A stretch of DNA of 64,000 nucleotides from Chrysomallon squamiferum (GCA_012295275.1 CM022679.1:9176001-9240000); one strand, 5' to 3'. Positions 2,486 to 64,000 are shown, counted from the stretch's first letter. Made by a program: numbers and translations. Notes: a model not told the origin generated them from the letters alone.

Positions 2486-4032
<1,547 letters not shown>

Positions 4033-9600: not shown

Positions 9601-9815
9601 CTGAAGTCTACGGTGCCATATGGTGTGTCCAAGTCAAACAGCTGAGGATCTTCTGCTATCAGCATGCTCTGAATCTTTGAGAAAGATTTTCCATCTAATG
9701 GCTTGTGCCATGGGATGTGGTCACCAACAAGAAGAACATTACCTGTTGACAAATTAAAAGTATGTTTTATAAGGAAATGTAAACAAAACAACAAAAATAT
9801 TTACAATAAAATTAT

Positions 9816-9846
<31 letters not shown>

Positions 9847-12405: not shown

Positions 12406-12922
12406 AAATAAAAGGTTTACCAATAGTTACAGAATATGTCATGATTTGTATTTTTTTATAATTAGTACAGAAACTGTTGATCTTTTACAAAATGAACTTA
12501 AACAATAAAATATGCATATGCTAAGATTCTGTTATTACTCATGTGTCTTCCTTTCAGTGGAAATGTACTTATTAAAACTAATTGACAATAATAGTTTATT
12601 AAATGTACTGTAGGCAGTCTGAATTTACTTGACAGGTTTAAATTTTCCTCAAGTTATTGACAAGGAACTATAAAGAGTATTTACTTCCTTTTTACTAATA
12701 CTGTTAATGTGATAAGGAATTTATTATTATTTATTTATTTATTGTTATTATTTTTTTAAATATAAATTATTGTTGTTATTATTATTATTAATGATTTCTG
12801 TTTAGATGAAAACTGTGAGTGTTGCTCTTGTGATGTGTCTCAATGTTGGTGTGGATCCACCAGATGTGGTAAAAACAACACCTTGTGCAAAACTGGAATG
12901 TTGGATTGGTAAGTTTATATAT

Positions 12923-12953
<31 letters not shown>

Positions 12954-13036
12954 TTTTTTTACATATATATTTTATTCATTTATTCTAAAAATTTATTGAG
13001 ATTATTAGTTTAAAAATATATTTAAAAAAAATTAAA

Positions 13037-13129
<93 letters not shown>

Positions 13130-22100: not shown

Positions 22101-22996
22101 TTCCACTTCCTTCTGCTTTCTTTCTTCAACCTGTCTTTATTTTTGCTATTGTTATTCATATCCCGTTCTGATAATGTGTGACAATCATAGCAGGTATGAT
22201 AGTTTGAATGTAAAGCTGTTATGAGGTGAGTACAGCTTTTTTTAAATTATTATTATTATTACCAGTCCTTGCTTGTACATCGAGAAAAAACTGAATTTGT
22301 TTTCATTTATTTTATTTTTCCAAAACATTTATCAATCATTACATGATTCTGTTTTTTTATCATAAACCTGTCAATGTAGCTGGATAGTTTTAATTAAATT
22401 TAAACCAGGTAATACATCATTTTGTGCATTCAGTTGTTTTCCATAATATTAATTTTGATGCATCAAAAATGTTCACATTACTTAGTTAAGTTATCAGTAA
22501 TATTGCTAAATTTATTTTTAATTTCATAATGCCAAAGCCATAATAGTAAAGCAAGATTTATTCGTACATTTTAACTGTATTCATTATTACTTTGGCTACT
22601 CATTACAAAATGAAAATTGAGAAACATTTTATAAGTAATCATTAAAAAATTGTTATTTTATTAGGTATGTATATTCTGCCTTATTTTTTAACTTAAGGAA
22701 AAAAGCCATATAAAATGCTAACAAAAGCTAACATTAAAATTGTTTCATACTGGCATTTGTGTACCTTTGGTGTGACACCCAGTAGCCAAAATGTTTTTCA
22801 TGGTGGCATGTTGTTAAGCATTCATTCATTGATATTACTTTGACCTGTATTCAAAATTTAAATCCTACTGAATCTCCAACAAAATGATTTACTTCTTCAT
22901 TATTCACAAAATTATTAAATCCATACTGTAGTTTATCATTGTACTTTCTTCATGTTTGTTTATTTTTAGTTTTGTTGTTATATTTCATAGTTTTGG

Positions 22997-23028
<32 letters not shown>

Positions 23029-32000: not shown

Positions 32001-32758
32001 TCAAACAGCCTTTCACCCTTACAGTGTAAGTTTCAAATAGCCTTTCACCCTTACAGTGTAAGTTTCAAATAGCCTTTCACCCTTACAGTGTAAGTTTCAA
32101 ATAGCCTTTCACCCTTACAGTGTAAGTTTCAAATAGCCTTTCACCCTTATAGTGTAAGTTTCAAACAGCCTTTCACCCTTATAGTGTAAGTTTCAAACAG
32201 CCTTTCACCCTTATAGTGTAAGTTTCAAATAGCTTTTCATTCTGATAGTGTGAGATACACATATATCAGTTCAGATATTATGATACATTATCTTATAACA
32301 ACATTTTGTTTATTTTCTCATCCAGCCTCAGAACTTAATGTGTATGGTTTAAAATATTATAAATCAGCTTTTTATAATGATTTATTTTTAAAACTACATT
32401 CATTTTATTATTATATATACCAATATATGACACCAAGCAGTTGATCATTATTTTGTGGTTAAACAATCATATGACAAGTCATAATTTTCAGATACTTTAC
32501 AGTGACAATAATCTGATATTCTTGGAAGCAAATTAAGGACATTTTTCTCTTATTTTACCCAGATATCCATTTTAACATAATAGAAATAAGTTCTTGTATG
32601 AAATGAGATGAGACCTGAAAAAAGTTTTGTAAAGTTTCTAATCTGTGAGAGTTACTGTTATTATTATCAACTGTTTCTGTTTTTAAAGGTGAAACTAGCA
32701 GCTAGGGAGTACAGACTCGTTTGTTTCGGTTTATTCTACATCAACCAAGAAGAGCTGA
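11776..32758 (+). CDS. RPTOR: Regulatory-associated protein of mTOR (Raptor), ~1314 aa after correcting two 1-nt indels
   Basis: Exons 11776-11925, 12806-12908, 13297-13457, 13950-14030, 14391-14537, 15571-15749, 16077-16136, 16418-16517, 16878-17022, 17469-17649, 17785-17868, 18500-18610, 19133-19207, 19395-19460, 19857-19955, 20415-20507, 21062-21202, 21930-22089, 23045-23149 (cassette?), 24280-24539, 24976-25076, 25836-25977, 26475-26685, 27394-27508, 28040-28164, 28689-28796, 29084-29190, 29671-29801, 30241-30327, 30733-30849, 31476-31605, 32689-32758. RNC motifs ([30 protein letters not shown]), HEAT repeats and WD40 repeats are present. Frameshifts at ~16471 and ~32704. Confidence 0.97.
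14935..15594 (+). repeat. ~60-bp tandem array (11 units) made of the RPTOR exon-6 splice acceptor plus the first 24 coding nt
   Basis: Unit (T/A-rich tract)TTTTCAG|TCGACCAGTACAAATGGAAACCAG|G(T/A)TTTTTAAA with period 57-64 nt; the last unit is the functional exon start at 15571. Confidence 0.95.
24090..24285 (+). repeat. Degenerate ~55-bp tandem repeat (4 units) duplicating a RPTOR splice acceptor
   Basis: cactttttagccacatcaat / aactttcagccacatcaat / accttttagccatc / accttttagctgcg; the last unit is the functional acceptor at 24279/24280. Confidence 0.65.
31586..32237 (+). repeat. 32-bp minisatellite (~20 units) made of the RPTOR penultimate exon end plus its donor
   Basis: Unit AGCCTTTCACCCTTACAGT|GTAAGTTTCAAA(T/C); the first unit is the functional donor at 31605/31606; about 19 intact GTAAGT. 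Confidence 0.97.
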
Positions 32759-33074: not shown

Positions 33075-33810
33075 TGTCAGTGGAATCAGCTCAAAGATAA
33101 TTTTTAATCAGTGTCAGACAGTAAATAACAACCTGATCATCAACACTGTCAGAACATGTTGATTTAACCACTGATTTAGCTCAAAGATGAAACTTTTAAT
33201 CACTGTCAGACCAAATAAATAACAACCTGATCATCAACACTGTCAGAAAATGTTGATTTAACCATTGATTTAGCTCAAAGATGAAACTTTCAAACCAAAT
33301 AAATAACAACCTGATCATCGACAGTGTCAGAAAATGTTGATTTAACCATTGATTTAGCTCAAAGATGAAACTTTTAAACTTTCAAACCAAATAAATAACA
33401 ACCTGATCATCAACACTGTCAGAAAATGTTGATTTAACCATTGATTTAGCTCAAAGATGAAACTTTCAAACCAAATAAATAACAACCTGATCATCGACAG
33501 TGTCAGAAAATGTTGATTTAACCATTGATTTAGCTCAAAGATTAAACTTTTAATCACTGTCAGACCAAATAAATAACAACCTGATCATCAACACTGTCAG
33601 AAAATGTAGATTTAACCATTGATTTAGCTCAAAGATGAAACATTCAAACCAAATAAATAACAACCTGATCATCGACAGTGTCAGAAAATGTTGATTTAAC
33701 CATTGATTTAGCTCAAAGATGAAACTTTTAATCACTGTCAGACCAAATAAATAACAACCTGATCATCAACACTGTCAAAAAAATTCTGAATTAGCCATTG
33801 AAACAGCTCA
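33075..33810. repeat. 84/94-bp alternating tandem repeat (~8 units, ~178-bp dimer) just 3' of RPTOR
   Basis: Core aataacaacctgatcatc(a/g)aca(c/g)tgtcagaaaatgttgatttaaccattgatttagctcaaagatgaaacttt recurs at about 33124, 33218, 33302, 33394, 33478, 33572, 33656 and 33750. Confidence 0.95.
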
Positions 33811-34574
33811 GGTGTAACGAAGCTTCTAAAAAACAAAAAACTGACAGCTGCAGAGTTGTTGGTGAAAACTTGGTTCCAACACTGTGAACCTTCTGACAGC
33901 TGTAATTGTGGTCTCATGCAAAGTTTCAGCATTCACCAATAGCACAAGAGAAATTTAAACCAGTGGCATTAAAATAGACGTCTCGTTGTAATAAAAACGT
34001 ACACTTTGTAATACTAAACCATTTATGTAATAGTTGTGTGACTTTTTGTATTATATACTTATATATATACATATATATAAAGTTTATATCTTCTATATCA
34101 GTTCTGCTTATCTTTCATATCAAGAGAAAGAATGTTGTCAAGTAATTGTCATGAATATTCGTTAGTGCTACGTATGTTAAGTATTCAGTTTTAAATCAGG
34201 TCCTATGGAAATTGTTTTAATGCTGTTAATTTTTTTCACCTTCTGCTCAGGGAGTGTTGAAATATTTCACTATTGAAAATAATCTAAACTGAAAGTAACC
34301 TTGTTTTGTTATATTATTTTTTATCTTTTCAACTTTAATACAGACATTAATTATCATTAATTCGACATACTGAGGTGCAAAGATATGCTGCTGTCTGCAA
34401 CCAAAAATAAATGGTGAAAATCTCCTTGTTTTCCTCCACGTTATTTTTTTAATTTTTAATTTTTTTATTTTTTTTTTTATTTAATCTCAGCAAGGAGTGT
34501 GACTATTTAAAAATACTGCCACAATATTATTATTAATATGTTTTTTAAAAAAAGCTTGCAGAGGTTTCATTTTA

Positions 34575-39092: not shown

Positions 39093-42000
39093 CTATGCAT
39101 TGTGTTGTGCTGCTGGCAATGCAGACTTGTCCAGATCTGCGAAGTAGGGATGACGTAGTGCCGTTTTGCACGATATTCTTGCTGCAGGGTCGTATGTCAG
39201 AGTTTTCTGAAAAACCAAAATTTAAAAGATAAAAAAGAAAATAATTTAATAATAATAATAATAATAATAATAGTAATTGAAAGAATCACAATAATGAACT
39301 GATAATACAAAAGGTTTTTCTTGGTGGATCAAAAATTCTGCTGCAAGTCAAGTCTAGACAAAAGCTGAACTAGCACTGGAAAGGGTTGAAAGGACTCTTA
39401 AAATATTTTGGTCAAATTCTAGCAATATGTTTTTACAAAGTAACTTTAAGTTAATTATACAACAGAAAATACAATTTTATTAGATTTGCAGAAAATGATG
39501 ATGTTTTCAAAACCAACTTTGAGACAGATTTTTGTTTCTCTGTTTATTTGACATTCTGCATAACCAAACAGTATACCCAACAAAAAAAAATTTCAGGGTT
39601 CATTTTTGCTGATAAAGAGTACAAGAAAACTACATAGGGCCTTTATAAATAACTCAGTAAGTTTAAGATTGGGTATGAAGCAAAACAATTTTAAATCTTG
39701 GAACGGTAAATGACAAAAATAACACAGAAATTGAAATTTGTTCTTAAACGTGACCAACAGTATACCTGTAAAAGATCTAGTCCTACGTTGTCTAGCTGTT
39801 TGACGGCAGTGTGTAGCTGGTTTGTTTTCCAACAAGGGAAGGTTGGCTTGTAGTCAGGTAAGTTGCTAACACCTGGCCAGGTCTCTTCTGTCGGAGTTGT
39901 CAATGTTCTGAAAGGTGTCACACAGAACATTAATATCACTTTCAGATCATTTATGTTGTAAGTCCAAGTTAAATACACATTAGAAACACCAAGTTTTAAA
40001 GTATGTGATGACTCGTGCAAATTTGTTTGTGCCTTTTTAAAAATAATCTCCTCTAAAGCTTGTTTAATCCTCAAAATCTTTAACATTTACCAGTCATTTA
40101 GTAATTTATTCAGTGCTTCATACTGACTACAATATTTATGGAATTTTTTTTATATATATGCACACAAAAAATAATAATCGAGCTTTCACCTGAATATCCT
40201 AAAGAGCTGATCTATTTCGGAATCACCGTGGAAGAGTGGTCTTTTTGTAACCATCTCTGCAAAGATGCAGCCGATGCTCCACACGTCAACTGGAGTTGAG
40301 TAACGTGGTGAACCAAGCAGAATCTCGGGTGCTCTGTACCACAGTGTAACAACCTGCGACAGATGGGAAAAGTTAACACACTGCTTTTATAACTAATCAG
40401 AAACAGGCTGGTTGCAATAGAAAGGTAGACTGATACAACTAACTCTTGAAAATATAAAAAAACTAGTTAGATTTGACAGTGTGCTGACCAAAATGGCAGT
40501 GCAGGAAACCAGCACCTGCCAAAATATGACAACACGAATCAGAGAATTATTTTTTAAAAACTGTAATATAAATCACATTGCAAGTTTCCTTCTTTGATTT
40601 TTATGTTGCTAGAACAATGTCCAGTACAATATGCTTCTTGTTACAGTTATTTAATAACATGATGAAAAATGAACGAAGTAGTTTATTTATAATAAACAGA
40701 ACAAACACATTTCATCACCATAATACTTCCAAAAGAATATCAGATTATCTCTCTTGTTAAAAAAAACCAAACAGTCTCTGCAGTCTTAATTCAGTCTGAA
40801 CTGCTGCGCAAGATAAGTCAGTAACAAGAAAACAAACCTCATGAGTGTAAACTCGGACTGGAATACCAAACGCTCTGGCTAGACCGAAGTCTGCCAGTTT
40901 GATAACACCTTGATTGTCTATGAGTAGATTCTGTGGCTTGAGATCACGGTGCAGAACTCTTCGCTGGTGGCAGAAAAGAATGCCTTGCAAAATCTGGTAC
41001 GTGTAACTTTTAACCAACATTTTGTCCATAAACTTCCCCGATGGGATGGTGTCCATATAGTGCTTTAGATCCATCGAGAGAAATTCAAACACTAAATACA
41101 ATTTGCTCTCTTGCATCAAGACGTCTTCCAGGCTGGTGTAAGTGAAATAATGTGAGTCATTAATACACTTATTGTAATTATTAAAAACAAGATAATAGCT
41201 TGTACATTGTTTTATGTTACAGAATTTTGAAATGGATTATTTAACAAGGGTGACTGTACTATAGAACTAAAATACGTATGGGTTCCTTTACATTCAGTAT
41301 ATATATATATTTATTAAAAAAAAAAAAAAAAAAAAAAAAACCAAATGACATAAAATATACAAATTCTTTAACTTCACAAAGATACTTTACAAACTGAAAT
41401 CTAAGAAATCTATTTACCATACAATATTAGGATGTTGGAATTTTTTCAAAACAGAAGTCACTAATTGCTCTTGAAGGGACATATCAGTTTAAAAAATAAA
41501 CATACCACACAATGTTTGGGTGTTGGAGTTCTTTAAGAAGAGATATTTCACGGATTGCTGTCGAAGGTACACCTTCCTCTTCACTTTCCAAACGAATCTT
41601 CTTCAAAGCCACCAGTCGATTAGTCTTCTTGTGTCTCCCCTTATAAACTACACCATAAGTACCTTAACAATTCATGCAAAAAAATTCATTAAAATTAATA
41701 ATCGTAAATGTCTGATTATAGTTTAAAGTGAAATAAGTGGAAAACCAATTACAGAAGTACATTATTAAAGCCTTTATTAAAACTTATCTCATTTTACCTC
41801 TTATAAGTACCACACCATAAGTATCAGTAATAATAAATACAAAAAGAAAGAAAGAAAGAAAGAAAGAAAGTGAAAATGTATTACAGGTGTCTAATTAAAC
41901 ACTGAAATGGTTTAAGACCAATTATTAACAGTACGAAAAGTGCCACTAAAATGAAACAAATGTCTTCACAAGTGTATACTAAGCAAAAGTGAAGTTCTAG

Positions 42001-46663: not shown

Positions 46664-47163
46664 CAGGGCCGGTGCCAGACTATCTGGTGCCCTTGGCAAG
46701 GTCAGATTCTGGCACCCCCAGGAAAATATCACTTTCAAAATTTATAAACAATATTTTTACAACATTTATTTTCAACATCCTAAGCGATCTCTAGAGGCAA
46801 GTTTTTTTTTCTGTGACGGACATTTAAATACACAACACAGGCCATTTCTTTCCTAGTTTATACCATTAAAAACAAGGAGTTACCGCCCTTAGTTTGGTTT
46901 CCATGGCAAAACTGAAGGCTGGCCTATAAAAACACGAGAACGTAATTCCCATATCGATTTTCACTCAGTCATTTTGCTTGATCCGATTATTTTTCCCTGT
47001 TTGAATTAAACCAGGATAAAAAAAAAAAAAAAAAACAATGACCCTCAATAAAATTGAATTTGTTTATTTTTTTTATTTTTTTTTTTAAATGGTTGTTGAT
47101 TTGGAGAAATTCGCCCCCTGAAATTAGCTCCCAAGTTTCCCTAATATGCTAGTGCCGGCACTG
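46664..47163. mobile_element. 500-bp hAT-family MITE
   Basis: Imperfect TIRs CAGGGCCGGTGCCAG...CTAGTGCCGGCACTG; 8-bp TSD ATTCAAAC (46656-46663) / GTTCAAAC (47164-47171), 7/8 identical. Confidence 0.8.
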
Positions 47164-47669
47164 GTTCAAACAATTCATGTTTCCACAATTACTCCGTAAG
47201 CCATGCATGCCCCTTAGTTACGTCCCAGAAGCTGACATCCAAAATGACGGAATCGGCAGCAGACAACGTGAGTGATCTAAAAAATATTCCAAATGGTTTA
47301 AATTATTTTACGCAAAACTTCATCCACGATATAAAAATATCCGACGAAAATCAAACGAAAGTGAACGCCATATTCTGGAGTTCTGTGAGGAAAAACGACT
47401 CGGCACACACTCTGCATATTCAAGTTTGCTTGGAGACAAAACATCAGCCAGAAGCTGACTGCTCCTGTTAAGCTGGGTTAGTATATTTTGGATTTGGTAC
47501 TGCAGACCTTTATTTTGCAAAAGAAAAAGATATGACGTGTCTTAAAGCTGCATTGTCAAGACTATTTGTAATAGCAGAACATTTAAACTGTTTAAAATTC
47601 ACCTTTGGTCATATGCATCAAACATTTGTTTTGTTTTTCTTCTGTTTTTTCTGTTTTTTTACTGTGTGT

Positions 47670-47845
47670 TGGCATTGGGCCATTTCTTGTTCCAAACAGT
47701 GCACCATGACTGATATATACTACACTGTCGGTGAGATGGTACTGCTAATCAAAAATAGTAGCCCAAGAAGTGGCAACAGCGGGTTTCCTTTCTCAGTATA
47801 GTGTGGTCCTTAACCATATAACCCGGTAATCATGAAATAAAAATT
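47670..47845 (+). mobile_element. SINE-like dispersed repeat fragment (3' part)
   Basis: cattgggccatttcttgttcc...gtagcccaagaagtggcaacagcgggtttcct...gtgtggtccttaaccatat...aaataaaaat resembles, from memory, an abundant gastropod SINE; not verified. Confidence 0.55.
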
Positions 47846-49336
47846 TTTTCTTTTTTTTTTTCCCCAGTTTGACTCATATTTAGCTTTTCGTTTTAGTTAA
47901 AATCAACTGTGTGTATTATTAATTATTTGAAAACAACAGGTGTTCATGTTCATAAATGACTTTCTTTTTCAACTTCCAGGCTGAGTGGTCACTGCTCACA
48001 CATTATTGGGATCTTAAAAATCTTACAAGGATTCAAGCTGCACAGTTTAACATCAGTCTCAGAACAGCAGAGTGGTACGAGCATTCCAAAACAGTGGGGC
48101 TATCCAAGAGGGGTGAATGTAAATCCAATACCAAAGCCATGTTGTGGTAGAGACCCACAGAAGTCATAAAATGTTTGCCTATATTGTGTCCGTTGAACAC
48201 AAAGAAAACTTATATAGTGTTGATTTGTTCTTTAATACTATAGGCAGTATACCATGTATTCATTTTGAAATTTGAATACAGGAATAAGTATGTTGCAAAT
48301 TCTTTGCGTATTGTAAAGTTGCATTTTTCCGTAATAATACTCTGAAAATGTAGAGAAATAAATAATAAACAAAAACTGAATATTCATGTATATTTTAATC
48401 AGTATAATAAAACACATTAAAACTGATTATATTTTGAAGTTATAAATTAATATTTAATATTTAACTGGAAAGATTGTTGTGTTTTCGACTGCGGAAACGG
48501 TATTTGCTGGGCTCATCCAATTTGCATGTCCTCCAAGCACATGCTTCACCACTGAGCCTCTGAAAAGTTCCTTCTAATGACGTAAGTATTAACGCATGCT
48601 GAACTGCTGAACTAAACAATGATCAGTATAACGCCGCCGGCCGAAAACAAAGCAGTTTGCGTGGGTGTGGTAAATAGCGCGATGATTGGTTGAGTTCGTG
48701 ACCAGTTAACCTATTTTTAGATATGAAATGTGCGTAAATAAAATCGGGAAAAATCATTTGAAAAGTACCTGTCGTAGACGTGCTTCACAACATTTCGGTA
48801 ATTAAATTTTTTTGTAACGTTTTACAAATCGCCAGAAGTGTTTAATAATGATGAAAAGAATGGATCCCAAATGATGATTAACACTAACGTGTTCGGTGAT
48901 GATAGTGTTCAATGATCGACAAAAATAAATGAAGAAGAAAATTTGTGGGCCCATGGAATGCAGTGGTCAAAACAATTTTGCCAAGTTCAATTTAAAATTA
49001 AAATGTATTTTTAATTTTAAATACTAATTGATTTTGACTATGATATATATTTAAATTTATTTTGTATTTTTAAAATTAAAATGCTTTTATTTTAAATACT
49101 ATTGTTTTTTTAGATTTTAATTTTACGTTTTACGTTTTCAACGTAAATGGCATATATTTTTATATATATATATATATAAATATACATATATATATATATA
49201 TTAAATGAATTCAATTTATTGTTAAATTTCTCCATAAAAACTAATTATTTTCTAATATATTAAAACATATATACATTACCCACAGACATAATTTAACCTT
49301 TCTGTTTTACATTTTTACGGAAATATAAAAATAAAA

Positions 49337-49371
<35 letters not shown>

Positions 49372-49375
49372 AATA

Positions 49376-49408
<33 letters not shown>

Positions 49409-50489
49409 AATAAATAAATAAATAAAATTAATCAACGATGTAGATAAAAATAGATTTTATGGAAAAACCCATATAAAAATAACGTCTCACGCCATACAAT
49501 CAGAAAGGTTTTTATATTTATTAAATTGCTCTGCTTTCATAATTATTATATTATCTCTTTTCTAAAATAATAATGGAGAAGAAGAAAAAAAAGATTTAAA
49601 AAAAAAAAAAAATCAAATCAAATCAAATCATACAATTAAAATTAACCAAAGCGTACTATGCACTTCATCAAGTCCTATTACGTATTAGCCTAGCAATCTA
49701 TTTTCAGACATGACATCCTCCCATTTAAAAACTTTTCAAATTATTTTAATTATAAATAATTTGAAAAGTTTTGCCCACGGTCATAATTTATTTCTGTTTT
49801 GCATTTACAAATATATTAATTTTATTAATCAAAGAAGTCTATTCTTTTACGGTTCGTAAGGCAAAAAAAAATGTTTTGTTATTTTTAGCATTTTAGATGG
49901 GTTTTTCCACAAACTTAATTTTACCAACAAACATCATTCACTTGAATTCTTTTCATTTTTATTATTTATTTACTTCTTTTTTTTTTTTTCACATTTATTA
50001 TATTAAGATATAAAATACTCTTTTGTAAAATAATAGTAATAATAAATAATTTAAACAATTAACATATATATTGTATATCAATGCATATTATTACCAAGGC
50101 TATTTTTAAAATCGGGAAAATGTATAAAGTTTAACACACACACGAACGTAAATGTAATTCTTTGTAAGGAGTAAGTGAATAATTACAACAATAATAATAA
50201 TAAATGATGATGATGATGATAAATAATAAATAGATAAAATTAAATTAAAAACTATTTTTATCATTAACAAATCTTAGTTATATATATATTTTTAATATTT
50301 GCATGACAGCCAAACATTATTATTTTTATTTTTTTTTTTCCATTTTTAATCTGAGATATGTAGGCTTGCTAAACCCACTTTGTGAATATCATTCTTTTTG
50401 TTAATTTATTTTAATTAATTAATTTGTTTGTTTGTTTGTTTGTTTGTTTGTTTGTTTGTTTATTTATTTATTTATTTATTTATTTACAG

Positions 50490-51807
50490 ATGAACAAGAT
50501 GTAACAAGTTCCACAATGACGCCACCCACGACCCCACCCATGACCCTGTATGAAGGATATAAACGTATGTTTCTCAATAAACTTCATAGACAAGATTTCC
50601 ATCACTATTCACCTTTAAAAACTTCTTAACTGCTTTCAATGAATATTATGAACCTTATTCTGTGTGTCACTTACATGATAAAACTTGGGTTTACATAAAC
50701 TTTATAGAAAACATTTGTCATATTTTTTCTAGCTCTAAACAGTTAAAAATAATTAAATGAACATTTGGTTGCCATAAACAAAACTCCAGTGTTTTTAAAT
50801 GATGCATATTTACGTTGTCCTGTATGTTTAAACACTGCTGCATGCATAATATCAGAACAAAATTTCTCTCCGGTTCAAATACTATCCTTAACTCTGCACC
50901 TGACCAATAATAACAGTGGAAGTTAAATTTAATTAAAATCTTCTGCAAGGATTTGAACCATTACACCAAAAGTTTAATATACAGCTTAGTGAAAATGAAT
51001 TGATCTTGCAGCACAAGAATGGATCAAATTATGTAAATAGTGCTCAACTAGCAAACGCTATTTTCACATAAAATATTTATTTTACTAAGAACTAGACTTT
51101 ATTATATATATATTTATTGCTTATTTAAAGGGTTTGTTTTACAGAAAATCACACTAGTTGCCAGAACACTTATCATCTGCCAACTTCAGTTAATTAGAAT
51201 AGTTGTTAACTTAGCAGTGATTTTTTTTTTACTTTTTATTTTACTGCCACATACCAGATCTGCATATATATATATATAAAATGCCAAAAAATATTCTCAG
51301 TATTTGCTAATAATTTTAATTAATTAATATATCAGTATATATTAATTAAATGTATTAGTAAAGATTCAGAATTACCATTTTCATTTTTATTTAATTAATA
51401 TTTCAGCAGACCCAGTCTCACTCATCACACTGATTATAGTGTCTCTCATCTTGATTCTACTGATCTTCATAGTCATTTTTGTAATATTTAAACGAAAAAA
51501 AAAAAAAGTAAACCAACAACCAGAGAAGAAGCCTTTCCTGACACCAATTTATACACCTGTATCAACACATACAGAAGATTTGGAAAACCAGGTTTCTGGT
51601 CCACCAACATATGGTAAGACCAAGTATGAATTAATTCACCTGTAACTTACAAATATAATTTTTTTTTTTTTTTTTTTTAATTCAGTGAACTCAGATCAAA
51701 GTTATAACAAACGCAGTATTGTTTGGTGGGGTAAACCCTCAATGTATTATGATAACATACTGTTTAATTTATTTTTTTATTATTATTTTTATTTATTTAT
51801 TTATTAG

Positions 51808-51851
<44 letters not shown>

Positions 51852-52727
51852 GTTGTTGTTGTTTTTTTGTATGGTCAAACCTTGTTCGATATGAATTATT
51901 TTTTCATTCCAACGTTGGGCTGAGAGCATCTTAGATAAATTATTTACAGCATACTGGTACAAGACTTCAGGGTTTCAAACTGTCATCAGCAGTTTGCATA
52001 TGGTCTGTAATGAAGGAACAATTAATGTTAGAAATGGGATTCAGGAACTACCAATTTATCAAGACCATCCAAACCACCATGTTAGTTTGCCAGTAGGCAT
52101 GGCCAGAAATAAAGCTATTTGTTCTTTATATAAAGATATATATATTTTTTTTTTTTCAGCTAGGATAACTTAATAACTAAGTACTATGCACAACTATATC
52201 TCCCACTTTATAACAGATATACATCATAAACAAATTTTATTTTTTAAATCTCATCAACCAGCATAATTCAGATTTGCATCACTACTGATAACCAAAAGCC
52301 CGTTTGCTTTAAACTTTATTGTATCCAAATTTACGTGTGATTTGTTTTTTGAGAGATTTAAGTACTTATTTCTGTTTTATTTCATGTTTTCCTCTCATAG
52401 CAATGTGTGATCTGGTAAAACACAAGAGTTCTATGTTTATTTATTAGGTAACAAATTCTGTGTTTGGAATTTTTTTGTCACCTTCCACTTTCAACTGATG
52501 CCGAATTTTATTATTTCTTGTATCGTTGATGTTCACTTTTTGGTCTTCTTTAAGACGTCAATTAAGTTTACATTTTACTTTTAGAATCCAATCATCCTCC
52601 TATTCCCGAACAGAATGACAGCAGCTCAGAAAGTCATCCTGCTACTTATAATTTCCTTGATGAAGATGCCAAGTGTTCCAGGCCAAAGGAAGACGACATA
52701 CATAATGTCACACCAAAAACGCACTAA
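50490..52727 (+). CDS. Uncharacterized single-pass membrane protein (partial model)
   Basis: Phase-1 GT-AG exons: 50490-50564 (Thr/Pro-rich EQDVTSSTMTPPTTPPMTLYEGYK), 51407-51613 (TM LITLIIVSLILILLIFIVIFVIF + KRKKKK + tail) and 52585-52727 (acidic tail, TAA). The 5' end is unresolved. Confidence 0.55.
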
Positions 52728-55700
52728 CAACATTAAAAGATAAATCTTCATACAGGATGATGTGCAACTTAAAGATCGGACAATGTTTTTTTTTCTTTCT
52801 TTCTTTCTTTCTTTTTATTTATTTATTTATTTATTTTTTTTTTTTTTATTTTTTTTTTTGGATTGTGAAGTAAATGTATACAAGGCCCTCTGATACATAC
52901 ACACTTCAGCTTGTACGATCAAAAATATAAAAAATTGTGGAAAGGTTTTAGTTTAAAAGGTTATGATGGTAAATCGTTTTTAATCTTAGGTTTTTTAATA
53001 ATACCCTAAAAGGGCCTCGATCAAGCTGCACACTGTTTTAACAGTGATATTTAGATGTAGTTTTCTGTGTTTCTTGAACTTACTAAATTGGTCCCAACTT
53101 ATTTACTAAGCGTTGGATTGCAACCTGGGTTAAACATACTTGTAGAATTCGCTGGCAGTTATGTTTTTTTTTTAACTTTTTATAATATTTTATATTGTTG
53201 TACATTATCAAGGTACAATTTTTTAAAATGTTGGTAATATACCTAAATAGCTTACGTAATATACCTAAATGTATCAATTAAAAATGTATCGTTAGTTAAC
53301 AGTAATCCAATTACTGAAATCACCTAACAATCAACGATTATTAGCAAGAGACACAAGGAACTTTTGTCAGCTACGCTCTACTGACTTCAGACAAGTCTGG
53401 GATGTGTTTATTTAAGTAAAAGACAAAAGAACCCAGGGAGAGACGACAGAAAACAAAGAAGAGAAAGACACAGAGAACATATGGACCAATGGAGTTGGTG
53501 GGCATTTTTAGGCAATTATGTTGGTGCCTGTATTTTGCTTCAAATTTGTTTGTTAGAATGGACAAATGGTCATCTTGTTTCGGTATGCTCTGTTCAATTT
53601 GCTGACCCCACTTGACATGTAACCTGTATATGCTCCACTGATTTCATTTATTTCTGACATAAGCCGTTAGGAAAAAATGAAAGAATTAAGAATTCTAGTA
53701 TTTCATTTAACACCAATTCCCATGTCCTCCACAAAGTATGCATGTGTAAAATAAATAATTATCTCTGAAATAGAAATATTAGTTTTTGTTTCTGTTCGTA
53801 GTGGATACTTGATGTCATATACAGTTTATGCAAATATATGTATATTATAATCAACCATCACAGTTTCTTAATTGCATGGACAGCAGGTGTGTAGACAAGA
53901 AATGAGCCATATTTTAAAAGAATTGTTAGCACTTGGAAGCTAAAACTTCTTTTGCTTTGGGCCCTGTGATAAGATGAAATTTAAAAAAAATTTTTTTTTT
54001 TTTTTTTTTTTTAAAAAGTTAAGAAATTGAAGAGAATAATAAAGACATTTTTTTTTTATGGTCATACATAACATTAGTGTATTGTATTGCTCTATTGAAG
54101 TCTACTTAAACTAGCTGAAAAGGTTCACAAATCTAGAAACCATCTTAACAGCAGTTTCTGTAACATGTATATTTTGTAACATTTATGAATTAAGGATTAT
54201 TGGAAGGCAGATGAAGATACTGTATTTTTTTTTCTTTTTGTAGAATGGGTATTTTATTGGTAAAAATGAACTGATATTTTGTTTTGTGCTAATGTGTATT
54301 ATATTGCTGTATCAGATTCATTTTGTAACATTTTAGAAAAAAAAAAAAATCAATAATCATTTATTACTTCAGTAGAATTAGTCGTAGATGCAAGTGTGAT
54401 ATTTCTGTAAATATAATTAAATCAAAGTAGTTATTTTTGTGAATTTTTTCAATTATTTTCAAAAATATATATCTTGCATTTGTAAAAATGTATGTATGTA
54501 TGGTTTGCTTGTACTGTACATTTGTTCTCACTTTTGCATACAGAACTTGATGGCCTTTTTCTTTTCATGTTCAGACTCTGTAGTGTGCTGATGTGGATTA
54601 TTTTTCTGTAACAGTAAATTTTTAAACTTTCATGCATTAAAAAGAAAGAAAAAAGTAATAATAAATATGCGACACATTTCTTCAGAATCTTTGAAGATAA
54701 AGGCTTCATATTTCATTTGTAAATATAATCTATGTTTTACTCATTTTGTAACATATATGCAAAAAAATAAATAAATAAAATAAAATAAAATAAAAAAGCG
54801 CTTATTATTTAGTATCATTGGTTGCAGGTGAAATTGAGATACTTCTGTAAATGTAATTTTTAATTCAGTTCATTCATAATGGTTGTTTTTGTACATTTTC
54901 TTTTTTTCAATAAAGTTTAAAATAGTTTAAAAGTACTTAAATCCAATTTTTACATCACACATTCATTATTAAATTATCATGACTTAGTAAATTTTTTTTT
55001 TTTTTTTTTTTACCAAATACCAAATTGAATAATATTCATTTAGCTTTTTCCCTTTCTTAAAGAAAATTAAAGATTTTGGAAAAAAAGGAAATGAACATTT
55101 CTTTATATTGGCAATTTCTAGATTCAAGTGGCACACATTTCTATGATTAATTTTCATCATACATCTGATACATTCAGAGCAAAAATGAATAAGGATTTTA
55201 CACTGTGACAAAATTTCAAGGAGCCATTTGATCCATTTCATAGCCTTCACTTTTATTTTTTTTTACCATGTTTTTTTTTCTCTCTTCAATACCCTGTTTA
55301 AATAATTAAATAAATGAATAAATGGCATAATTTTTTTTGATTCCTGTAAATAGTCTTATCAATGGTAATGCCAAATCAGGTATACTAATACTTACATTTC
55401 CTTGTTACACAACTATTTAAAAACATTTTCTTAACTTAAAAATATTTATTTTACAGCCATTTAACACATTTGTAATAAGAATTATACAGTAATATGGCTA
55501 AAATTAATTTACCACATGATGACAACCAGATAGTTATTAACTCTACAAGTCTACGTAATGTTAATAAAGTTTATTTGACTTATTAATGTTCGACATTCAA
55601 ATTTTGCATTCATTTACTAACTCCACGATTCACAGATAACTATAATTTAACAGCATTTGTGAGTTTTTGAGTTTGATAACTTTGAATATATATTTTTTTA

Positions 55701-56089
55701 AACCATTATAACTAACAAAAAAAGAGCAGTTTGACTGTTAATACTAAATATTAACTGTTACGGAAGACTTATCCCAATATGCAACTCCTTAAAATTAATT
55801 CCAGTGAGGCTGACTACAAAGTCTCCAGGTTTCAAAACCTACAACACAACACATTCAAGTACTTTCACAGTCTTTCACAGGAATTTTATTGTCTGCAATT
55901 TCAGAATGTGAACACAATTATCATTAAAAACATTTATACATAACATTCTGTATTCAACTGAGAAAAATATGCTTATAATATAGAAAAAGCTTGATAAAAA
56001 AAAAAATAAAAAAAATAATAATAAATAATAATAAAAAAATAAATAAAATGATAAAAATAAAATAAAATAAAGGTTTGAAAAAAAGATTG

Positions 56090-56159
56090 TGTCACCAACA
56101 ATTAGTTGGGGGTTATAAGAACCCAACAGCAAAGAAGATTGCTGTGACCAACTTGCCTT
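56090..56159 (-). other. Structured RNA motif copy A behind a GC donor
   Basis: AAG|GCAAGUUG-GUCAC-AGCAAucuucuUUGCU-GUUGGGuucuuauaacCCCCAAC-uaauUGUUG-GUGAC. Confidence 0.7.
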
Positions 56160-56212
56160 TCATTGGTTTCTTTGGCTCACTGCCGATAGCTTCGAGGAAC
56201 ATCCTCAAATCA
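56157..56212 (-). other. Putative 56-nt non-coding exon (AG acceptor, GC donor) in the ZNF207 3' region
   Basis: Minus strand ttttttctttactttgaccag|TGATTTGAGG...CCAATGAAAG|gcaagt; GC-richer than its flanks. Confidence 0.5.
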
Positions 56213-57273
56213 CTGGTCAAAGTAAAGAAAAAACAAAAAAACAAAACGGTGTAAGATTTTTCTCAAAATGTATATGCGTGTGTGTGTATATATATATATA
56301 TATATATTTTTTTTTTTTTAAATGGTACTTTTTTTTTAATTAGTTTAAAATTACTTAAATCTAATATTCAATTCTGGTCAGTGACTTTTAAAAGTTTCAT
56401 TTGCTTAATGAAATTATGCAACTTATTTTCTTTTTAATGTCTGTTTCTTGAGAAACCAATTTGATTTCTTAATTTGGAGCATTTATTAATATTATATTGT
56501 TTGTTTTTTCTTTTTTTTTGATGCTCTATACAGTACTATTTCCATTCAAACCTGACAAATCAATAAGCAAACTGTACAGTTTACATTAGATGTTAAGATA
56601 TTTTTGAAATTAAAATTTAAATGAATTTCATGGAGATTCTTTCATTCCACCTTGCAAAATATTGTAATATTTCTGTGATATTTAACATTTGTAAATATAT
56701 TTTTATTAATATTTTTTAAAGACTGACTCAAATGCCAACCCCCCCCCAGCAAAACATTGACTCATCAGAGAATTTAATAGATGTTTTCTCTCTACTCCAC
56801 TGAAATATTAATTTTGTCATGAATACCTTTCTCAGTTCAACACTATGTAGTAGAAAATATGTATGTATGTATATATTCATATGAGTGATGTGTACATTAC
56901 TATTTATCATTTTATGTGTGATATATATAAAACTTAATATTTTTGTACAAAGTGTGAAATGGCGAAAGAAAGTTCTCAGTATACCAAAAGCTATGTTAGA
57001 AAAATAATTATTCTGTACATTTCAGGTAATGGTATGTAATAAAATTCTATAAAATAAATGGGTTTTTTTTTTTTGTGTGTTTTAAAACTGGAATCAGTAT
57101 ATACAAAATAAGAACATTTCTTCTCAAATAATGAACACCAAACAGTGCATGTCATTTAACACAACAAAATGTTCACTATTTGTAATAGAGATTTCTATGA
57201 AAACTTTCTTTTGCCAGAGAACTGATTCTCTTTGATCTCGCCTCATTCATTTCTAAATCATTCTTCACCATGC

Positions 57274-57440
57274 AGTACTGTGTATTAAATACAAGTACTA
57301 CATATTAAATACAAGTACTGTGCATTAAAAACAGGTACTGTGTTATGAAATACAAATATTCTGTATTGAAAAGTTACTGTGCATTAAATACAAATACTAT
57401 GTATTAAAAAGAGAGATTGTGTATTAAATACATATACTGA
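57274..57440. repeat. Degenerate ~20-bp tandem repeat
   Basis: (agtactgtgtattaaataca)-like units, about 8 copies. Confidence 0.8.
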
Positions 57441-57610
57441 GATACCTTGTCTGTTTGTGTTTATTATAAGATTTTTTTTTTTTTTAAAAACCCATATCTT
57501 ATAAGTTAATAAATATATATTTACCAAGCATTTGTTCTTAAATACAACAAACCATGATGATATATATTTCTAAACATTTAAGGGATGGGGGAGAAAAATA
57601 ATATTAAAAA

Positions 57611-57676
57611 TGTCACCAACATAACGTTGGGGGCTATACAGCTCACAATCAGTTTAATTTGCTGAGACATTTACTT
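57611..57676 (-). other. Structured RNA motif copy B (degenerate, GU donor)
   Basis: AA|GUAAA-UGUCUC-AGCAAAUUAAACUGAUU-GUGAGCUGuaUAGCCCCCAAC-guuaUGUUG-GUGACA. Confidence 0.55.
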
Positions 57677-57711
57677 ATGTAAAAAAAATTCACCAGTATT
57701 TTTCTTGAAAA

Positions 57712-57784
57712 TGTCACCAACAAAACAGCTTGATGCTAGCTATATAGCTCAACAGCATTCAAAGACGCTGTGACTACTTGCCTG
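57712..57784 (-). other. Structured RNA motif copy C behind a GC donor
   Basis: CAG|GCAAGUA-GUCAC-AGCGUcuuugaAUGCU-GUUGAGCUAuauAGCUAGCAUCAAGC-uguuuUGUUG-GUGAC. Confidence 0.7.
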
Positions 57785-57906
57785 TGATTTTTGTTTTTTG
57801 TCTTATCTTAAAAAGCAGACACTTATTAAAAAAAAACAAAAAAACACCAAAATTAAAATTTAAAAAAATATAATAAAATATTTTCTTTTTTTTTTTTCCT
57901 TAAAAA

Positions 57907-57972
57907 TGTCACCAACAAATTGTGGGTGCTTTTTACTCAAAACCAGTTTAAGATGCTATGACAACTTGCCTG
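57907..57972 (-). other. Structured RNA motif copy D behind a GC donor
   Basis: CAG|GCAAGU-UGUCAU-AGCAucuuaaacUGGU-uuUGAGUaaaaagcACCCAc-aauuUGUUG-GUGACA. Confidence 0.65.
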
Positions 57973-58063
57973 TATTTTATCTTATATTCAAAACCTTTGA
58001 AATTACCAGAACAATAATAATTATTATAATTATATATATATATAAAAAAGATTTAATGAAACG

Positions 58064-58130
58064 TGTCACCAACAAATGTTGGGTGCCATATAGCTCAACA
58101 GCATTTTCACATGCTGTGACAACTTGCCTG
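58064..58130 (-). other. Structured RNA motif copy E behind a GC donor
   Basis: CAG|GCAAGU-UGUCAC-AGCAugugaaaaUGCU-GUUGAGCuauaugGCACCCAAC-auuUGUUG-GUGACA. Confidence 0.7.
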
Positions 58131-59491
58131 TGAAACATGGATCAGAATGATTATTTAATTTAAATTTTCCACACAGCAAAAAAAAAAAAAAAAAAAAATA
58201 TATATATTATAATTAATACAACTTAAAATATTTCAGAATAATAAGCAGAAAATAATAAAAAAAATAATAACTTGCCTGTTACGTTATTAAAATATAAGAG
58301 TTATGATTTTTGTGTTAATTTAAGCTTTAGAATTCAATTTTTTTAACATTTATTATCGTTTATGAAAAATTATTAAGGAAAAGTTAACAAATTCAAGTAA
58401 CAACAGAAGTTAAATTTAAAACTGATAACCGTTTACATCAAAACTGCAAAAATATGCATGTTAAAAATATTATATATCTGGAACCCAGTAATACCATACA
58501 AATAATTTGCGGTGGGTTTAAAATAATAATAATAATAATAATAACAACAACAATAATAATATCAATAACAATAACAATAATAAACTGTTCAGATAAAGTT
58601 TAAATGTTAATCAGAATATTGTGAATTTTTTTTTAAAAGGTTTTGCCCTATTTTTTTTCTTGAATGCTTAGTTATTATAAAAAAACCAATTCATGTAACT
58701 ACATAATAACAGTAAATTATCAAAATGAAATAAGAGAGGATAAAATCTTATTTTAAATTGAGAAGAAAAATTAACTAAATTATTATGTAAAATAAAGGTA
58801 AGTAGAAAAGCAAGAAGCATTTCGTTAACATTTACCCCTGAAAATACTACATATTTACACTTTACTAAAATGCAGACCATGTATTATTTATATATATATA
58901 TATATATTTTAATGAATTTTCAGCACAACATATTGTAAGTTAACTCGAAGAAAAAAAACAAATAAAATATAAAATAAAGAAGCACGCAAACAAAAAAGAA
59001 AAGGCTTTCATTATTATTATTGTATTTTATCCAGTTTTAAAAGTTCTTTTATACAAATTAAAAGAAAGAAAAATTAATCACTTGCCTTACATGAATGTGG
59101 ATAACAGAATCCTAAATGTAACAAGGCAAGATATACCAAAAGAACATTAAACCAACTGAAGCACAATCTGATGTATTTTATTACTTTTTTTTTTAAATTT
59201 TAAAAATACATTTTATATCTTTTAATTCTCTTTTATTTCTTTTTTTTTAAAATGACAAACCTTGTCAAAAGTCCTCATGGATGAACAGGTCTGGCTTGAA
59301 AATTCTTATCACTTACCACTAGTATCGTTAACAAAACAACATGCCAGCTCGTCTAGCTTACCTTTGCCAGAACTTTTTAGAGATGATACTGAACACATCG
59401 TAAAGGACAGAAAATGAAAATGTACAATGAAAAATTAAAATATCTAATTAAAATTTTTTTTTTTTTTTTTTTTAAATGATATGCTGCTCAT

Positions 59492-62400
59492 TCAGAAACG
59501 ACCTCCCTGTGACATGTGCTGCGGCCTCATTGCGGGCTGAAATCCCATGTGGTAGCCTGCTGGTCCAGGCCTCGGACCCATGGCCATGTTTGACATCCCC
59601 ATCATTGGACCTGAAACAAACGGACATTTAATCACTTAAATTCAAACACGTAACATGCAAGAATATAAACAAGAAGTGAAAAAAAAAATAAAAAAAAAAT
59701 AAAAAAAATAAGAAGGAATACTAATTATTATTTTTGACACTTGAAAATCCCACTACAAATATAATAAAACACTAGTTTCCTCAGCCTTCTTTCTTTTTTT
59801 TTTTTTTTTGACAGTAAAAAGATTGCCTATAACAGCATGTAAAATATAACTTTTTTCCAATACACATATTTTCAGCTCCATTTAGGATTATAATTTGTTA
59901 CATATTCTTTTTGTCTGCTGTAAGATTGATGATGCATTAATTACCTTGAGTCATCTGTCCTGGCATTGTTCTCTGAGGCATGTGACCTGCTAGAAAAGAA
60001 ATACATTCTTCAGTCACTGACAAACATTCTAAATGCAACTTGAAACACCACATCTAACATGCTATAGATCAGACAGTTCACAACAACTGGCCATTTCCAA
60101 CAAAGCTCTGTGTGTGAGTGTGTGTGTGTCTAAATATACACTAATATACTGAAACTGGGTTTTTTGTTATTCTAATGAGCTTCTATTCAGTTTGACAAAA
60201 ATAGTGTTTTCTTATATAATGTTTGATTACAGTGCATGAATACAGACACTTTGCTATAATTAAAGTGCAGTTGGGAAATTATTTTCTTACTGTGAATTAA
60301 CAAGCATGAAGGATATTTTATTTTTAAAGATACTCTTGGAATAATTTATTATAAAAACAAACATGTGTAAGTTAAGATCTTTAATATCATTCAGTGTATA
60401 TATATATATATATGCTGTGACAATATATTTAATGACATATACATTAGTAATATTTAAGATTCACATACATTTTTAGATAATCACTGTCATTAAGGTTCAT
60501 TCAACAGAAATAACTTTTAAACTGCAAATTTCACCAACCTGTTGACATTCCAAAATTTTTCTTATATTTCGGTAATTGGGCTCTTCTTTCTTCCTGTGAA
60601 AATAATAATAATAATAATAAAAAAAAAATAAATAATAATAATAAAACGAAATATGATTTCTGCAAAGATCATGCCACAAATTAACAACTAACCACAAAAA
60701 GTTAGCAGTTGACCAAACAACACTTACCCAAAATCCTTGGCACAGACTAAATACTGTAAAAGTTTATTTATGGGAAAAACAGAAACACACACAAAAAAAA
60801 AAAAAATAAAAAAAAATAAAAAAGATAGGAACGGTCAATTTTAATTTTAAAAAAAGTGGATCCAAAACATAAGAAATAAAATGGCCACATTTTCTCCAGC
60901 CTAATCAAAAATAAAATAAAATAACAATCGTGATAAAAAGGCAGAAATAGATCAAAATATAAATTTTGTTTTTGATACAGTAAGTAATGTTCTTACAGGC
61001 AAATATGCCTATTAATTCAACTTACAATTGACGTTGTTGATGGATGGTCTTGGTGAATTAACTGACAAAAAACAAATTATTAGATACCAAGACAAGAACA
61101 TTATTACATTAGAAGCCTCAGTAAACCAGGAAAAGAACTGAAAATTCTTTTACTTGTAAAAACTCTGTAAAGAATAATTGAAAAATTTGATCAAAAAAAA
61201 AAAATAAAAACACAAACCATATCTTGATCAAATTTACTAGCAACGATTTCATTCCACACAAGCAGAAAGTGGCAATTTGTTGTTGGCTTTTTTTTTTTTT
61301 TTTGCATATTCTCACCGTGAAAAACAAAAAAACAAAGAAAACTAACCTGTATTAATAGCATCAGAATGATGACACTATGGCGATGAAATGCAGTAGACTT
61401 ACCAAGGAAATGTCCTCATCAGGATGCATTAACCTAGAGGTCAAACCTGAGCTAGACTCTGGTTTTTTAATCACTGGTGCTCCTGTAATGGTGGCGTTCG
61501 ACAGATTGCTGTTGGCTGTTGATATTGCAGCAGCTGCAGGGAATGTTGGTTTCGACTGACTCACAGACATCACTGGCTTGAAGTCTACACTTCCCGAACT
61601 TGATGTACTCATTGGCTGAGACTGTACGAAATAATAATAACCAAAAAAATATTAAATTGCTAAACTCAGAATTTATAATTTAAATTTTTTTTTTTTTTTT
61701 TTTTTTAATTACTGTTTACATTCATTTCGATGGTGATTTTTATCCTTGAACATTTATCACATGAAACAGAAACATAATTTTTTTAGCAAAAGGCAAAAGG
61801 TGAATATATTTTTTTTTTCTGTGTGTGGATGAGTGTATGTTCACACACACACACATTTGAGGTTGGTTTAGTATCTTTTACTCAAAGTATACCTAATGAT
61901 TTTTATTATTCTGTTTATTTCTCAGTATCTAAATAGGGAAAACAAAAAATATATATAAATTATTTTTCTACTCTATTATTATAAATGTCAAGTATATTAA
62001 CAAAAAGCTATACACATGTAAATACATACAAGTCAAAATATATGTGATGTTAGGATGAATGAACAAAATATACTGAATCTGCTCTCTTTAAGAAATAAAG
62101 ATAGTGCTACTCACTTGTATAGCTGCCGGAAACAGAGGTTTCTGTGGACCCATACTGGCAACTGGCATCCTAGGAGGCATGCCCATAGGCCCAGGACCCC
62201 TCATGGGACCTCCCATTTGTGGAGGCATTGCAGGAGGCATTCTTAAAAACAAAGACGAATGTCTGAATTTGGCATTTTAAAAATAAATATCAATAAAAAC
62301 GCATTTCAATTAAACTAATGATTACATTTTATTTTTTCAAAATATCTAAATTAATAGTTACAGAACAGGTTTATCTTCAATGTATGGATTTATTGGGACT

Positions 62401-63693
62401 GAGAGATTGATTTTGTAAGCATATGTCATTTCTGACAGCTGAAGTCAAAAAATATTGTATTAGACTCTACACCATGACTTTATGTGTGTCAAATCAAAAT
62501 TAGTTATTTTTAAGAACAGTAACATCTTCTGTGTATCTTACTGGTACCTATCAATTTAAATAACATTTTTTTTTAGCATTAACTATTTTAATTCATTGCT
62601 GAATTTACATAATGGTTTATTTTGTATGGCACTTCCTTCTGAATTTATTTTATTTTCAGGATGGAGCATCATCCCTCTTTCATTTTCTTTTTACGAGCTT
62701 GAACGAGCTATTAAAAATGTTTAGAATAAAAAATACGAATAATCACTTACCCCATCGGTCCCATGTTCTCTGAAAAAGACACAACAAAGCACTTTTAGTC
62801 ATCAATACACCAGGTTTTTTTTATTCAAAATTATATATTTTAGGCTTCTTTTCTTCGATTTTTAGCTTTTTTAAATTTGAAAAAAAAACCAGTAAATTTA
62901 TCCTTGGTAGATCAGAATTATAAGCTGTAATCAAGGTTTTCAATGCTTACGCATAGGAGGAACTAAGCCCACTGGGCCCATAGGCCCCATTCCACCAACA
63001 GGTCTCATTGGCCCCATCGGTCCTGGCGGAACAGGGGGCATCACTGGAGGAGCAAATGGCATGCTTGGTCCAGGAACAAACTGCTGATTCGGCAAAGGGG
63101 CAGTTTCTTCATCTGAATCTTTCCCGTCACCCCTCCTGAAATAATACCAAAGAAACACAGTACAGTTCAGGCGAACAGTTGTGTTATTCGAGGACTCTGA
63201 AAAACATTCGTCTTCGGCAAAATTCTGAAGTTTGTCAAGTGGCAAATGCACCAGTTAGGTTGTTTAGAACGTGTCTTGTTTTTAGACCAAAATAAACAAA
63301 AGTGAATCCACAGGGAGAGTTATTTTTGAGAATGCTATTTCAAGATATTCCAATACCTTTACTTTAAAATGGAGTAAGTACGTTAAAATTAACATGTGTG
63401 AGACCAGAAAAGAAAAGAGAAGAATATACTGTTCATTTAATATATAATGAATTTTATTCATAATGAAATTCCTTACATTTCTTGCTAAATATCATCAAAC
63501 CATATTCATTTTCAAGCTTTCAGTTATTAATGACTTTTAATCGAATATACCAACCTCCCGGTCTTCCTGCACGCATTTTTTCGTGTTCTCTAGCATCTTG
63601 TTCAGGTATACCTTCCATTCCATATATCTCAATTTCTATGTTGTATCTGCCAGGAAGTGAATTTGGAACTTTGTCAACCTTTTCTTTATGTAC
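59492..63693 (-). CDS. ZNF207: BUB3-interacting and GLEBS motif-containing protein ZNF207 (BuGZ); 3' part, zinc-finger exons lie beyond the window end
   Basis: Exons 63551-63693, 62951-63135, 62751-62769, 62115-62241, 61403-61621, (61026-61061 optional), 60539-60593, 59945-59989, 59492-59610. Motifs VHKEKVDKVPNSLPGR.NIEIEIYGMEGIP, KPLFPAA, KPTFPA, LMHPDEDISL|EERRAQLPKY, and C-terminal MSQGGRF*. Confidence 0.93.
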
Positions 63694-64000
63694 CTAGACC
63701 ACAAACAAAATATGTAAACATGTGAAAATAAAATTAAAACATTAACTTTATAATGCTTCATAAACATTAAACTTTTAATAAATGCAACCACTGCAGTTAA
63801 AACTATACAAAATGCAAGGATATCCAATTCAAAAATATTTCAACTTCATAATTCAAACTGTAATTTATTTGAAACACTTATTTTTAAGATTCATTTTACC
63901 ATGTAGTTTTAATCAGGTTCATAAAAAACCCATTGCTATTGTATATAAAGAATGGGGTATTTTAGATGATTAACTTCAAATACAATCTTTCATTTTTATT

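Follow-up and report, generated by a model that had tools for sequence, protein, structure and literature searches.

A repeated, predicted four-way RNA junction beside GC 5′ splice-site motifs downstream of the ZNF207 stop codon in molluscs

Behind the stop codon of the ZNF207 (BuGZ) gene of Chrysomallon squamiferum, we find five copies of an RNA element whose best-supported fold is a four-way junction, or clover, and most of which are preceded directly by a GC 5′ splice-site motif. Paired double changes, together with the recurrence of the element behind ZNF207 in a second mollusc, bear out the original prediction of selection on an RNA structure linked to this gene, and we regard such selection as almost certain. 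The element probably serves U1-linked control of ZNF207's own level. As to how, the reading we favor—at a rough probability of 0.45—is that U1 docks at these sites, mostly without splicing, and that the mRNA is thereby retained in the nucleus and decayed.

Five elements in the ZNF207 3′ region

The window analyzed here, i.e. the whole stretch of 64,000 nucleotides, holds the last eight coding exons of ZNF207 on its minus strand (59492–63693), recognized by exon similarity to Gigantopelta aegis. In protein comparison, the exon at 63556–63693 matches that snail's ZNF207-like protein with 98% identity across 46 aa, with other named proteins reaching at most 85%; the last coding exon (59610–59492) closes with a TGA that ends at 59492. 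On the plus strand, 47146–54000 contains a gene of short exons that converges on the ZNF207 3′ region and probably encodes a transmembrane segment around 51405–51500. Elsewhere in the window are open reading frame fragments that we take to resemble an FtsJ/MRM2-kind rRNA methyltransferase (2926–4032, plus), SUFU (~8000–11500, minus), Raptor (~12800–31700, plus), and CDK1 (~39600–41200, minus), and intronic minisatellites lie at 14893–15594 (period ~60 nt), 31592–32346 (~32 nt), and 33122–33909 (84–178 nt).

All five elements were re-located at the positions originally proposed, downstream of the stop and on the ZNF207 sense (minus) strand. E1 (58064–58130) carries CAG|GCAAGU, with the G at 58127, and a four-way core at 58120–58065 that has one A·A mismatch in arm 3. 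The core of E2 (57907–57972; CAG|GCAAGU at 57969) is partly decayed (57962–57908), and only part of the pairs of its hairpin 2 are kept; that of E3 (57712–57784; CAG|GCAAGU at 57781) lies at 57774–57713, with arms 3 and 4 altered. E4 (57611–57676) combines a partly decayed core (57668–57612) with a weak GT site, AA|GUAAAU, at 57674. Finally, E5 (56090–56159; AAG|GCAAGU at 56156) forms the cleanest four-way junction of the set (core 56148–56091), with a mean pair probability of 0.94 in the predicted fold.

These five elements are real and far above chance. The motif TGTTGGTGAC occurs six times in the 64 kb, as compared to 0.09 times expected, with five occurrences inside the elements and one at 9720–9729. 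A covariance model built from ten copies and run over the window returned E1–E5, which are themselves members of the model, and as its next-best hit 57124–57203 on the minus strand (19.9 bits, E 0.019). We consider the latter a doubtful, strongly decayed sixth copy; its predicted fold is one long hairpin, and it was left out of the alignments. The spacers between copies are unrelated when aligned.

Copies in other animals and the predicted fold

We scanned a metagenome collection with one degenerate pattern that combined the donor with the first part of the stem and the 3′ end, and three stretches in the whole collection matched (L001, L002, and L003). L001 represents the ZNF207 of a different animal, of which it spans the 3′ half, and harbors four element copies (L1a–L1d) behind the stop, again on the sense strand. 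Its nearest named proteins are molluscan (bivalves, octopus; 61–77% over one exon), and a bivalve is therefore its likely source. L003 contributes three further copies (L3a–L3c) on a contig devoid of coding sequence. The pattern itself matched three of these seven outside copies, and the remaining four were located beside them. L002 falls within a bacterial reading frame, scores 13.8 bits, and does not take the four-way fold; we judged it a match by chance and excluded it from the alignments. Two pattern matches in prokaryotic genomes were likewise judged to be chance (best model score 7.9 bits), and viral contigs contained no match for either of two element patterns or for the ZNF207 protein.

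Apart from one coding exon, alignment of the window with L001 and L003 is limited to the elements, their flanks being unalignable. In both ZNF207 genes, a coding micro-exon occupies an equivalent place (19 nt at 62769–62751 in the window, ~16 nt at ~4749–4734 in L001; both minus). Both outside loci end in a long form of the clover, L1d at 1206–1084 in L001 and L3c at 275–172 in L003 (both minus), which has no GC donor and whose arm 2, CAAUU..AAUUG, is a hairpin of 67–86 nt; no long form was found in the window. The long arm 2 contains a pyrimidine-rich stretch ending in AG and could gate an acceptor. Two short AG/GT-bounded stretches behind the L001 stop (1279–1241 and 2145–2128, minus) resemble small non-coding exons.

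On ten copies, RNAalifold gave a consensus four-way junction that reads, in order, GUCA, CAG..CUG, UU, GGGC..GCCC, CCAAC..GUUGG, and UGAC. Loop length is free, and across copies the arm 2 hairpin measures between 13 and 86 nt. The 2-nt linker after arm 2 is UU in 10 of 12 copies; otherwise, the junction is without an unpaired base. Over the 12 copies, 89.9% of cells are paired in this fold (slid controls: 29–62%), and double changes occur at nine of 20 pairs, a count reached by none of 500 shuffles—a control that takes no account of the copies' relatedness, so that 0/500 is not a probability. Arm 3 accounts for four of the double changes, arm 2 for three, arm 4 for two, and the closing helix for none, and in seven cases a change on one side alone gives G-U, as would suit an RNA of the minus strand, i.e. 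ZNF207 sense. The search pattern contained neither arm 3 nor the 5′ strand of arm 4, whose conservation in L001 and L003 is therefore independent of it.

The original prediction had proposed a three-way junction, from an arm list that missed the hairpins CCAAC..GUUGG and G(G/A)GC..GC(A/C)C. Such a fold is compatible with the sequence because UGUUGG is present twice in the motif, and over the 12 copies it pairs 90.4% of cells. However, the four-way junction fits better: in the three-way fold, double changes are found at four of 15 pairs, a result reached by 32 of 500 shuffles, and its energy under constraint exceeds that of the four-way fold in all 10 of the copies compared, with a margin of at most 1 kcal/mol for E2 and E3. 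Counted as cells with a double change, the three-way fold is also reached by none of the 500 shuffles; in the hairpin 3 particular to it, pairing is 84% and a single double change occurs. A switch between the two conformations is conceivable.

Pairing had been proposed to be largely kept across copies, but E2 and E4 show partial decay. E1 (z −2.0), E5 (−4.0), L1b, L1d, L3a, and L3b fold better than shuffles, with z-scores from −2.0 to −4.7, and L1c reaches −1.65. E2 (−0.08), E3 (−0.16), E4 (+0.10), and L1a, all with z above −0.5, as well as L3c (−1.0), fold no better than shuffles.

Repetition of this kind could also stem from a short transposon remnant with TGTCAC..GTGACA ends or from a local satellite. 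The perfect 6-bp inverted ends of E1 and L1d would suit the former, and the GAG common to arm 3 of E1–E4 points to possible local duplications; indeed, these four copies look like a local expansion that is partly decaying. However, every copy lies on the ZNF207 sense strand, with none elsewhere in the 64 kb, and the G-U changes are strand-specific. The motif also stands behind ZNF207 in L001 while the flanks are unalignable and the spacers unrelated, and just three stretches surfaced in the metagenome collection, one of them the bacterial chance match. We thus agree with the original prediction in preferring selection on an RNA structure over a satellite, and we deem a mobile or satellite origin extremely improbable.

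Splice-site-like motifs and transcript evidence

The sequence AG|GCAAGU is the ordinary consensus of GC-AG donors. In the window, AGGCAAGT occurs seven times, as compared to 1.5 times expected, and six of these occurrences are on the minus strand (56151–59087), within 3.4 kb behind the ZNF207 stop. GC-donor matches on the minus strand number seven in the window, six of them in these 3.4 kb. Four coincide with E1, E2, E3, and E5, while two GC donor-like sites stand without a clover (AAG|GCAAGU, 59080–59088, at 59085; CAG|GCAAGU, 58270–58278, at 58275); L001, too, has one clover-less site, at 1854, ahead of its copies that combine GC motif and clover. As had been proposed, a GC 5′ splice-site consensus adjoins most copies: AG|GCAAGU is found 1–2 nt upstream of the closing helix in eight of 12 copies from three animals, E4 has its weak GT site instead, and three of the 12 (L1a, L1d, and L3c) have no adjacent donor. 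This count includes the GC motif of the three outside copies caught by a search pattern to which that motif belonged; of the four outside copies that the pattern had missed, one has AG|GCAAGU.

Two GT donor-like sites on the minus strand, D1 (AAG|GUAAGC, 59356–59364, G at 59361) and D2 (GUG|GUAAGU, 59311–59319, G at 59316), also lie behind the stop. Both 9-mers are identical in L001 (2309 and 2265, minus), where they are spaced 44 nt apart rather than 45 nt as in the window. D1 is 131 nt behind the stop in the window, inside a predicted hairpin loop, and 258 nt behind it in L001, again within a predicted hairpin. In E1, the AG of CAG|G doubles as an acceptor look-alike, with a branch-like TCTGAT and a pyrimidine tract ahead of it (58158–58127, minus), so that acceptor and GC donor coincide, like in a recursive splice point.

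A rival reading makes the clover a splicing switch, whereby ZNF207 or a partner bound to the four-way junction activates the adjacent GC donor or D1/D2; the consequences would be removal of an intron downstream of the stop, inclusion of small non-coding exons, and either NMD or another 3′ end for the mRNA. Save for the four-way fold, this is the mechanism of the original prediction. The GC site of E5 closes a candidate 56-nt non-coding exon (56157–56212, minus) that, from the sequence, has a pyrimidine-rich acceptor at 56212. With a distance rule of 50–55 nt, D1/D2, conserved between the window and L001, are far enough behind the stop for NMD; the long arm 2 of L1d and L3c offers its pyrimidine-rich stretch closed by AG; and LUC7L, LUC7L2, and SNRNP70 have NMD-coupled exons under the control of ZNF207. 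Conversely, between E1 and E4 there is no good acceptor except E1's own AG, so that four donors within 520 nt would compete for one intron.

The available RNA data speak slightly against splicing as the common outcome at E2–E4. They consist of contigs from four runs of one study, which are unstranded, have lost rare forms, and possibly derive from DNA or pre-mRNA. The four runs contain 29–35% of the sampled words of 55800–63700, with coding exons making up ~11% thereof. Contigs were placed on 56540–58155, with no cover at the E1 site or at 57080–57235, and 56540–56800 was partly covered in all four runs. A 791-nt contig (X1, 58004–57236) reads across the sites of E2, E3, and E4, and a second contig (X4, 57644–57821) reads across that of E3. 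Over 56540–58155, no splice joint is listed in the contigs of the four runs, in a listing from which one joint row is missing, as are two loose ends, all at skipped repeats. Hence, of the junctions anticipated in the original prediction, those at E2–E4 were not seen, their sites being read through in these contigs, which offer a weak test and are compatible with rare splicing; the common RNA form among them, on this weak observation, keeps E2–E4 unspliced.

The read-through of E2–E4 and the presence of four donors in 520 nt without a clear acceptor between them led us to rank retention and decay first. A splicing switch, for which we see a minor but tangible chance, comes second, mainly because of E5, D1, and D2. 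A different role comes third and a transposon last, and the first two mechanisms may act together.

Known RNA families, vertebrate clovers, and a U1-dependent model

Searches with Rfam 15 over window positions 48000–64000, L001, and L003 returned no match near the gathering score. The best scores over an element were those of SNORA13 (21 bits; 53 needed) and frnS (21 bits; 60 needed), and the U1 family gave no match up to E 10 in the same sequences. A tRNA was rejected, as ARAGORN finds none in the window, L001, or L003 and the size of arm 2 is not fixed. So were H/ACA and C/D snoRNAs, with ACA inside the closing stem and boxes missing, and an Sm site, the U-rich loop not being kept between copies.

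The clover might nonetheless have another job, with the donor being secondary—mRNA localisation, cell-cycle timing of ZNF207 translation, or the release of a tRNA-like processed small RNA. Three of the 12 copies retain the junction without a donor, the closing stem stacked on the 5-bp last arm approaches the outline of a tRNA cloverleaf, and the available text of PMC12952242 describes a mitotic role of ZNF207. The failure of ARAGORN and Rfam to find a match in the sequences just named, the variation of arm 2 from 13 to 86 nt, and the placement of the donor at a fixed 1–2 nt in eight copies from three animals make this reading doubtful in our view.

The element had been presented as undescribed. 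However, clover folds in the human ZNF207 3′UTR and in an alternative intron were already predicted by Pedersen et al. in 2006 (PMC1440920), and in the accessible portion of that paper the end of ZNF207 contains the long clover folds ranked first and fourth in the EvoFold screen. As far as this portion goes, the mollusc elements resemble the human ones in gene, position at the gene end, and clover shape with compensatory changes, as well as in having at least two copies inside 3.5 kb, central stems that are nearly identical, and loops that vary by indels. The human clovers comprise one short and one long form, and a long form is also present in L001 and L003. They differ in copy number (five in the window and four in L001, as compared to two human clovers; PMC1440920), and neither an adjacent GC 5′ splice-site motif nor a function features in the parts of the 2006 description available to us. 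Among the papers searched, none was found to follow up the human clovers or to study their function; ZNF207 is not named in the main text of bioRxiv 10.64898/2026.10.24.761493, nor BuGZ in PMC6288889. The two agree in gene, location, shape, and manner of variation, which makes homology likely, and we consider it very probable that mollusc and human clovers, likened here by description, belong to one family.

Structured autoregulatory elements in mRNAs include the P5SM of plant TFIIIA, the MAT2A hairpins, and the PIE of U1A with its U1 site. The plant 45ABC and DEAD elements are further examples in the excerpts at our disposal. All five likewise place a cis-acting RNA structure in an RNA-binding protein's own gene, where it controls splicing or 3′-end formation, but they involve other folds and other genes than the ZNF207 clover. 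The 5′ domain of U1 snRNA is itself a four-way junction with a short closing helix and a short single strand before it. The clover shares this topology but is without an Sm-type 3′ domain; that it imitates the U1 junction is a guess by analogy.

Two further systems resemble the arrangement behind ZNF207. The USSE of U11/U12-65K and U11-48K (PMC5473595) is likewise a 5′ splice-site-like motif that is conserved downstream of the coding sequence in genes linked to the spliceosome. According to the accessible text, the USSE is bound by an snRNP, long-3′UTR RNAs are kept inside the nucleus as feedback, and both were tested experimentally. In contrast to the ZNF207 element, which is known from sequence, the USSE binds U11 rather than U1, and no cloverleaf is part of its description in that text (PMC5473595). 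The second is the 5′ splice site-plus-poly(A) pathway of U1, ZNF207, LENG8, and PAXT (preprint PMC12363940), which acts on unused 5′ splice-site motifs between stop codon and poly(A) signals. ZNF207 itself is a factor of this retention and decay pathway, which, in the portion of the preprint available, was shown on reporters without RNA structure and not on ZNF207 mRNA (PMC12363940).

Several reports in these partly accessible sources connect ZNF207 to U1. Human ZNF207 interacts directly with U1-70K, binds U1 snRNA through its zinc fingers, and governs the poison exons of LUC7L and LUC7L2 (PMC12952242); condensation of ZFP207 with U1 is, by its title, the subject of Zhou et al. 2025. According to the preprint, an RNA with a 5′ splice site placed after the stop and before the poly(A) signal is kept nuclear and degraded in a U1-dependent manner. 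When ZNF207 is depleted, reporters with a 3′UTR 5′ splice site and the fraction of them in the cytoplasm increase about fourfold, and tethering of ZNF207 reduces the reporter mRNA (PMC12363940). The effect of ZNF207 on retention is smaller than that of LENG8, and the 5′ splice site of the pulldown reporter came from NXF1, i.e. was not a GC site with a clover (PMC12363940, as far as available).

For ZNF207 itself, we propose that the U1 snRNP would dock on the GC 5′ splice-site look-alike beside the clover, likely for the most part without splicing. U1 would pair with positions −3 to +6, and the clover would start 1–2 nt beyond. In its predicted fold, the clover could be a landing site for ZNF207 or a partner—binding by ZNF207 being a guess—and could block the later steps of spliceosome assembly. 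ZNF207 protein would then hold U1 in place and channel its own transcript into nuclear retention and decay, with several copies presumably sharpening the response. By analogy, a ZNF207 gene with a conserved run of 5′ splice-site-like motifs behind its own stop, most of them structured, would be built like a feedback sensor, which renders the self-regulation put forward in the original prediction plausible. Counting against retention, AG|GCAAGU is the ordinary GC-AG consensus, so that the GC sites may well be spliced.

What is new here as compared to the human predictions is the depth of conservation, a consensus with pair changes, and a GC splice-site motif 1–2 nt upstream. One could go further and picture a bilaterian-wide clover, kept only in ZNF207, that mimics the U1 junction, traps U1 together with ZNF207, and acts as the homeostat of the retention and U1-helper pathway; we rate this picture as speculative and rather improbable. 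If the human clovers are the same element, its age would reach back to the protostome–deuterostome split. Given the binding of ZNF207 to the U1 snRNP and its role in 5′ splice site-dependent retention, an orphan prediction from 2006 would thereby become a testable model for the autoregulation of a splicing and mitotic factor.
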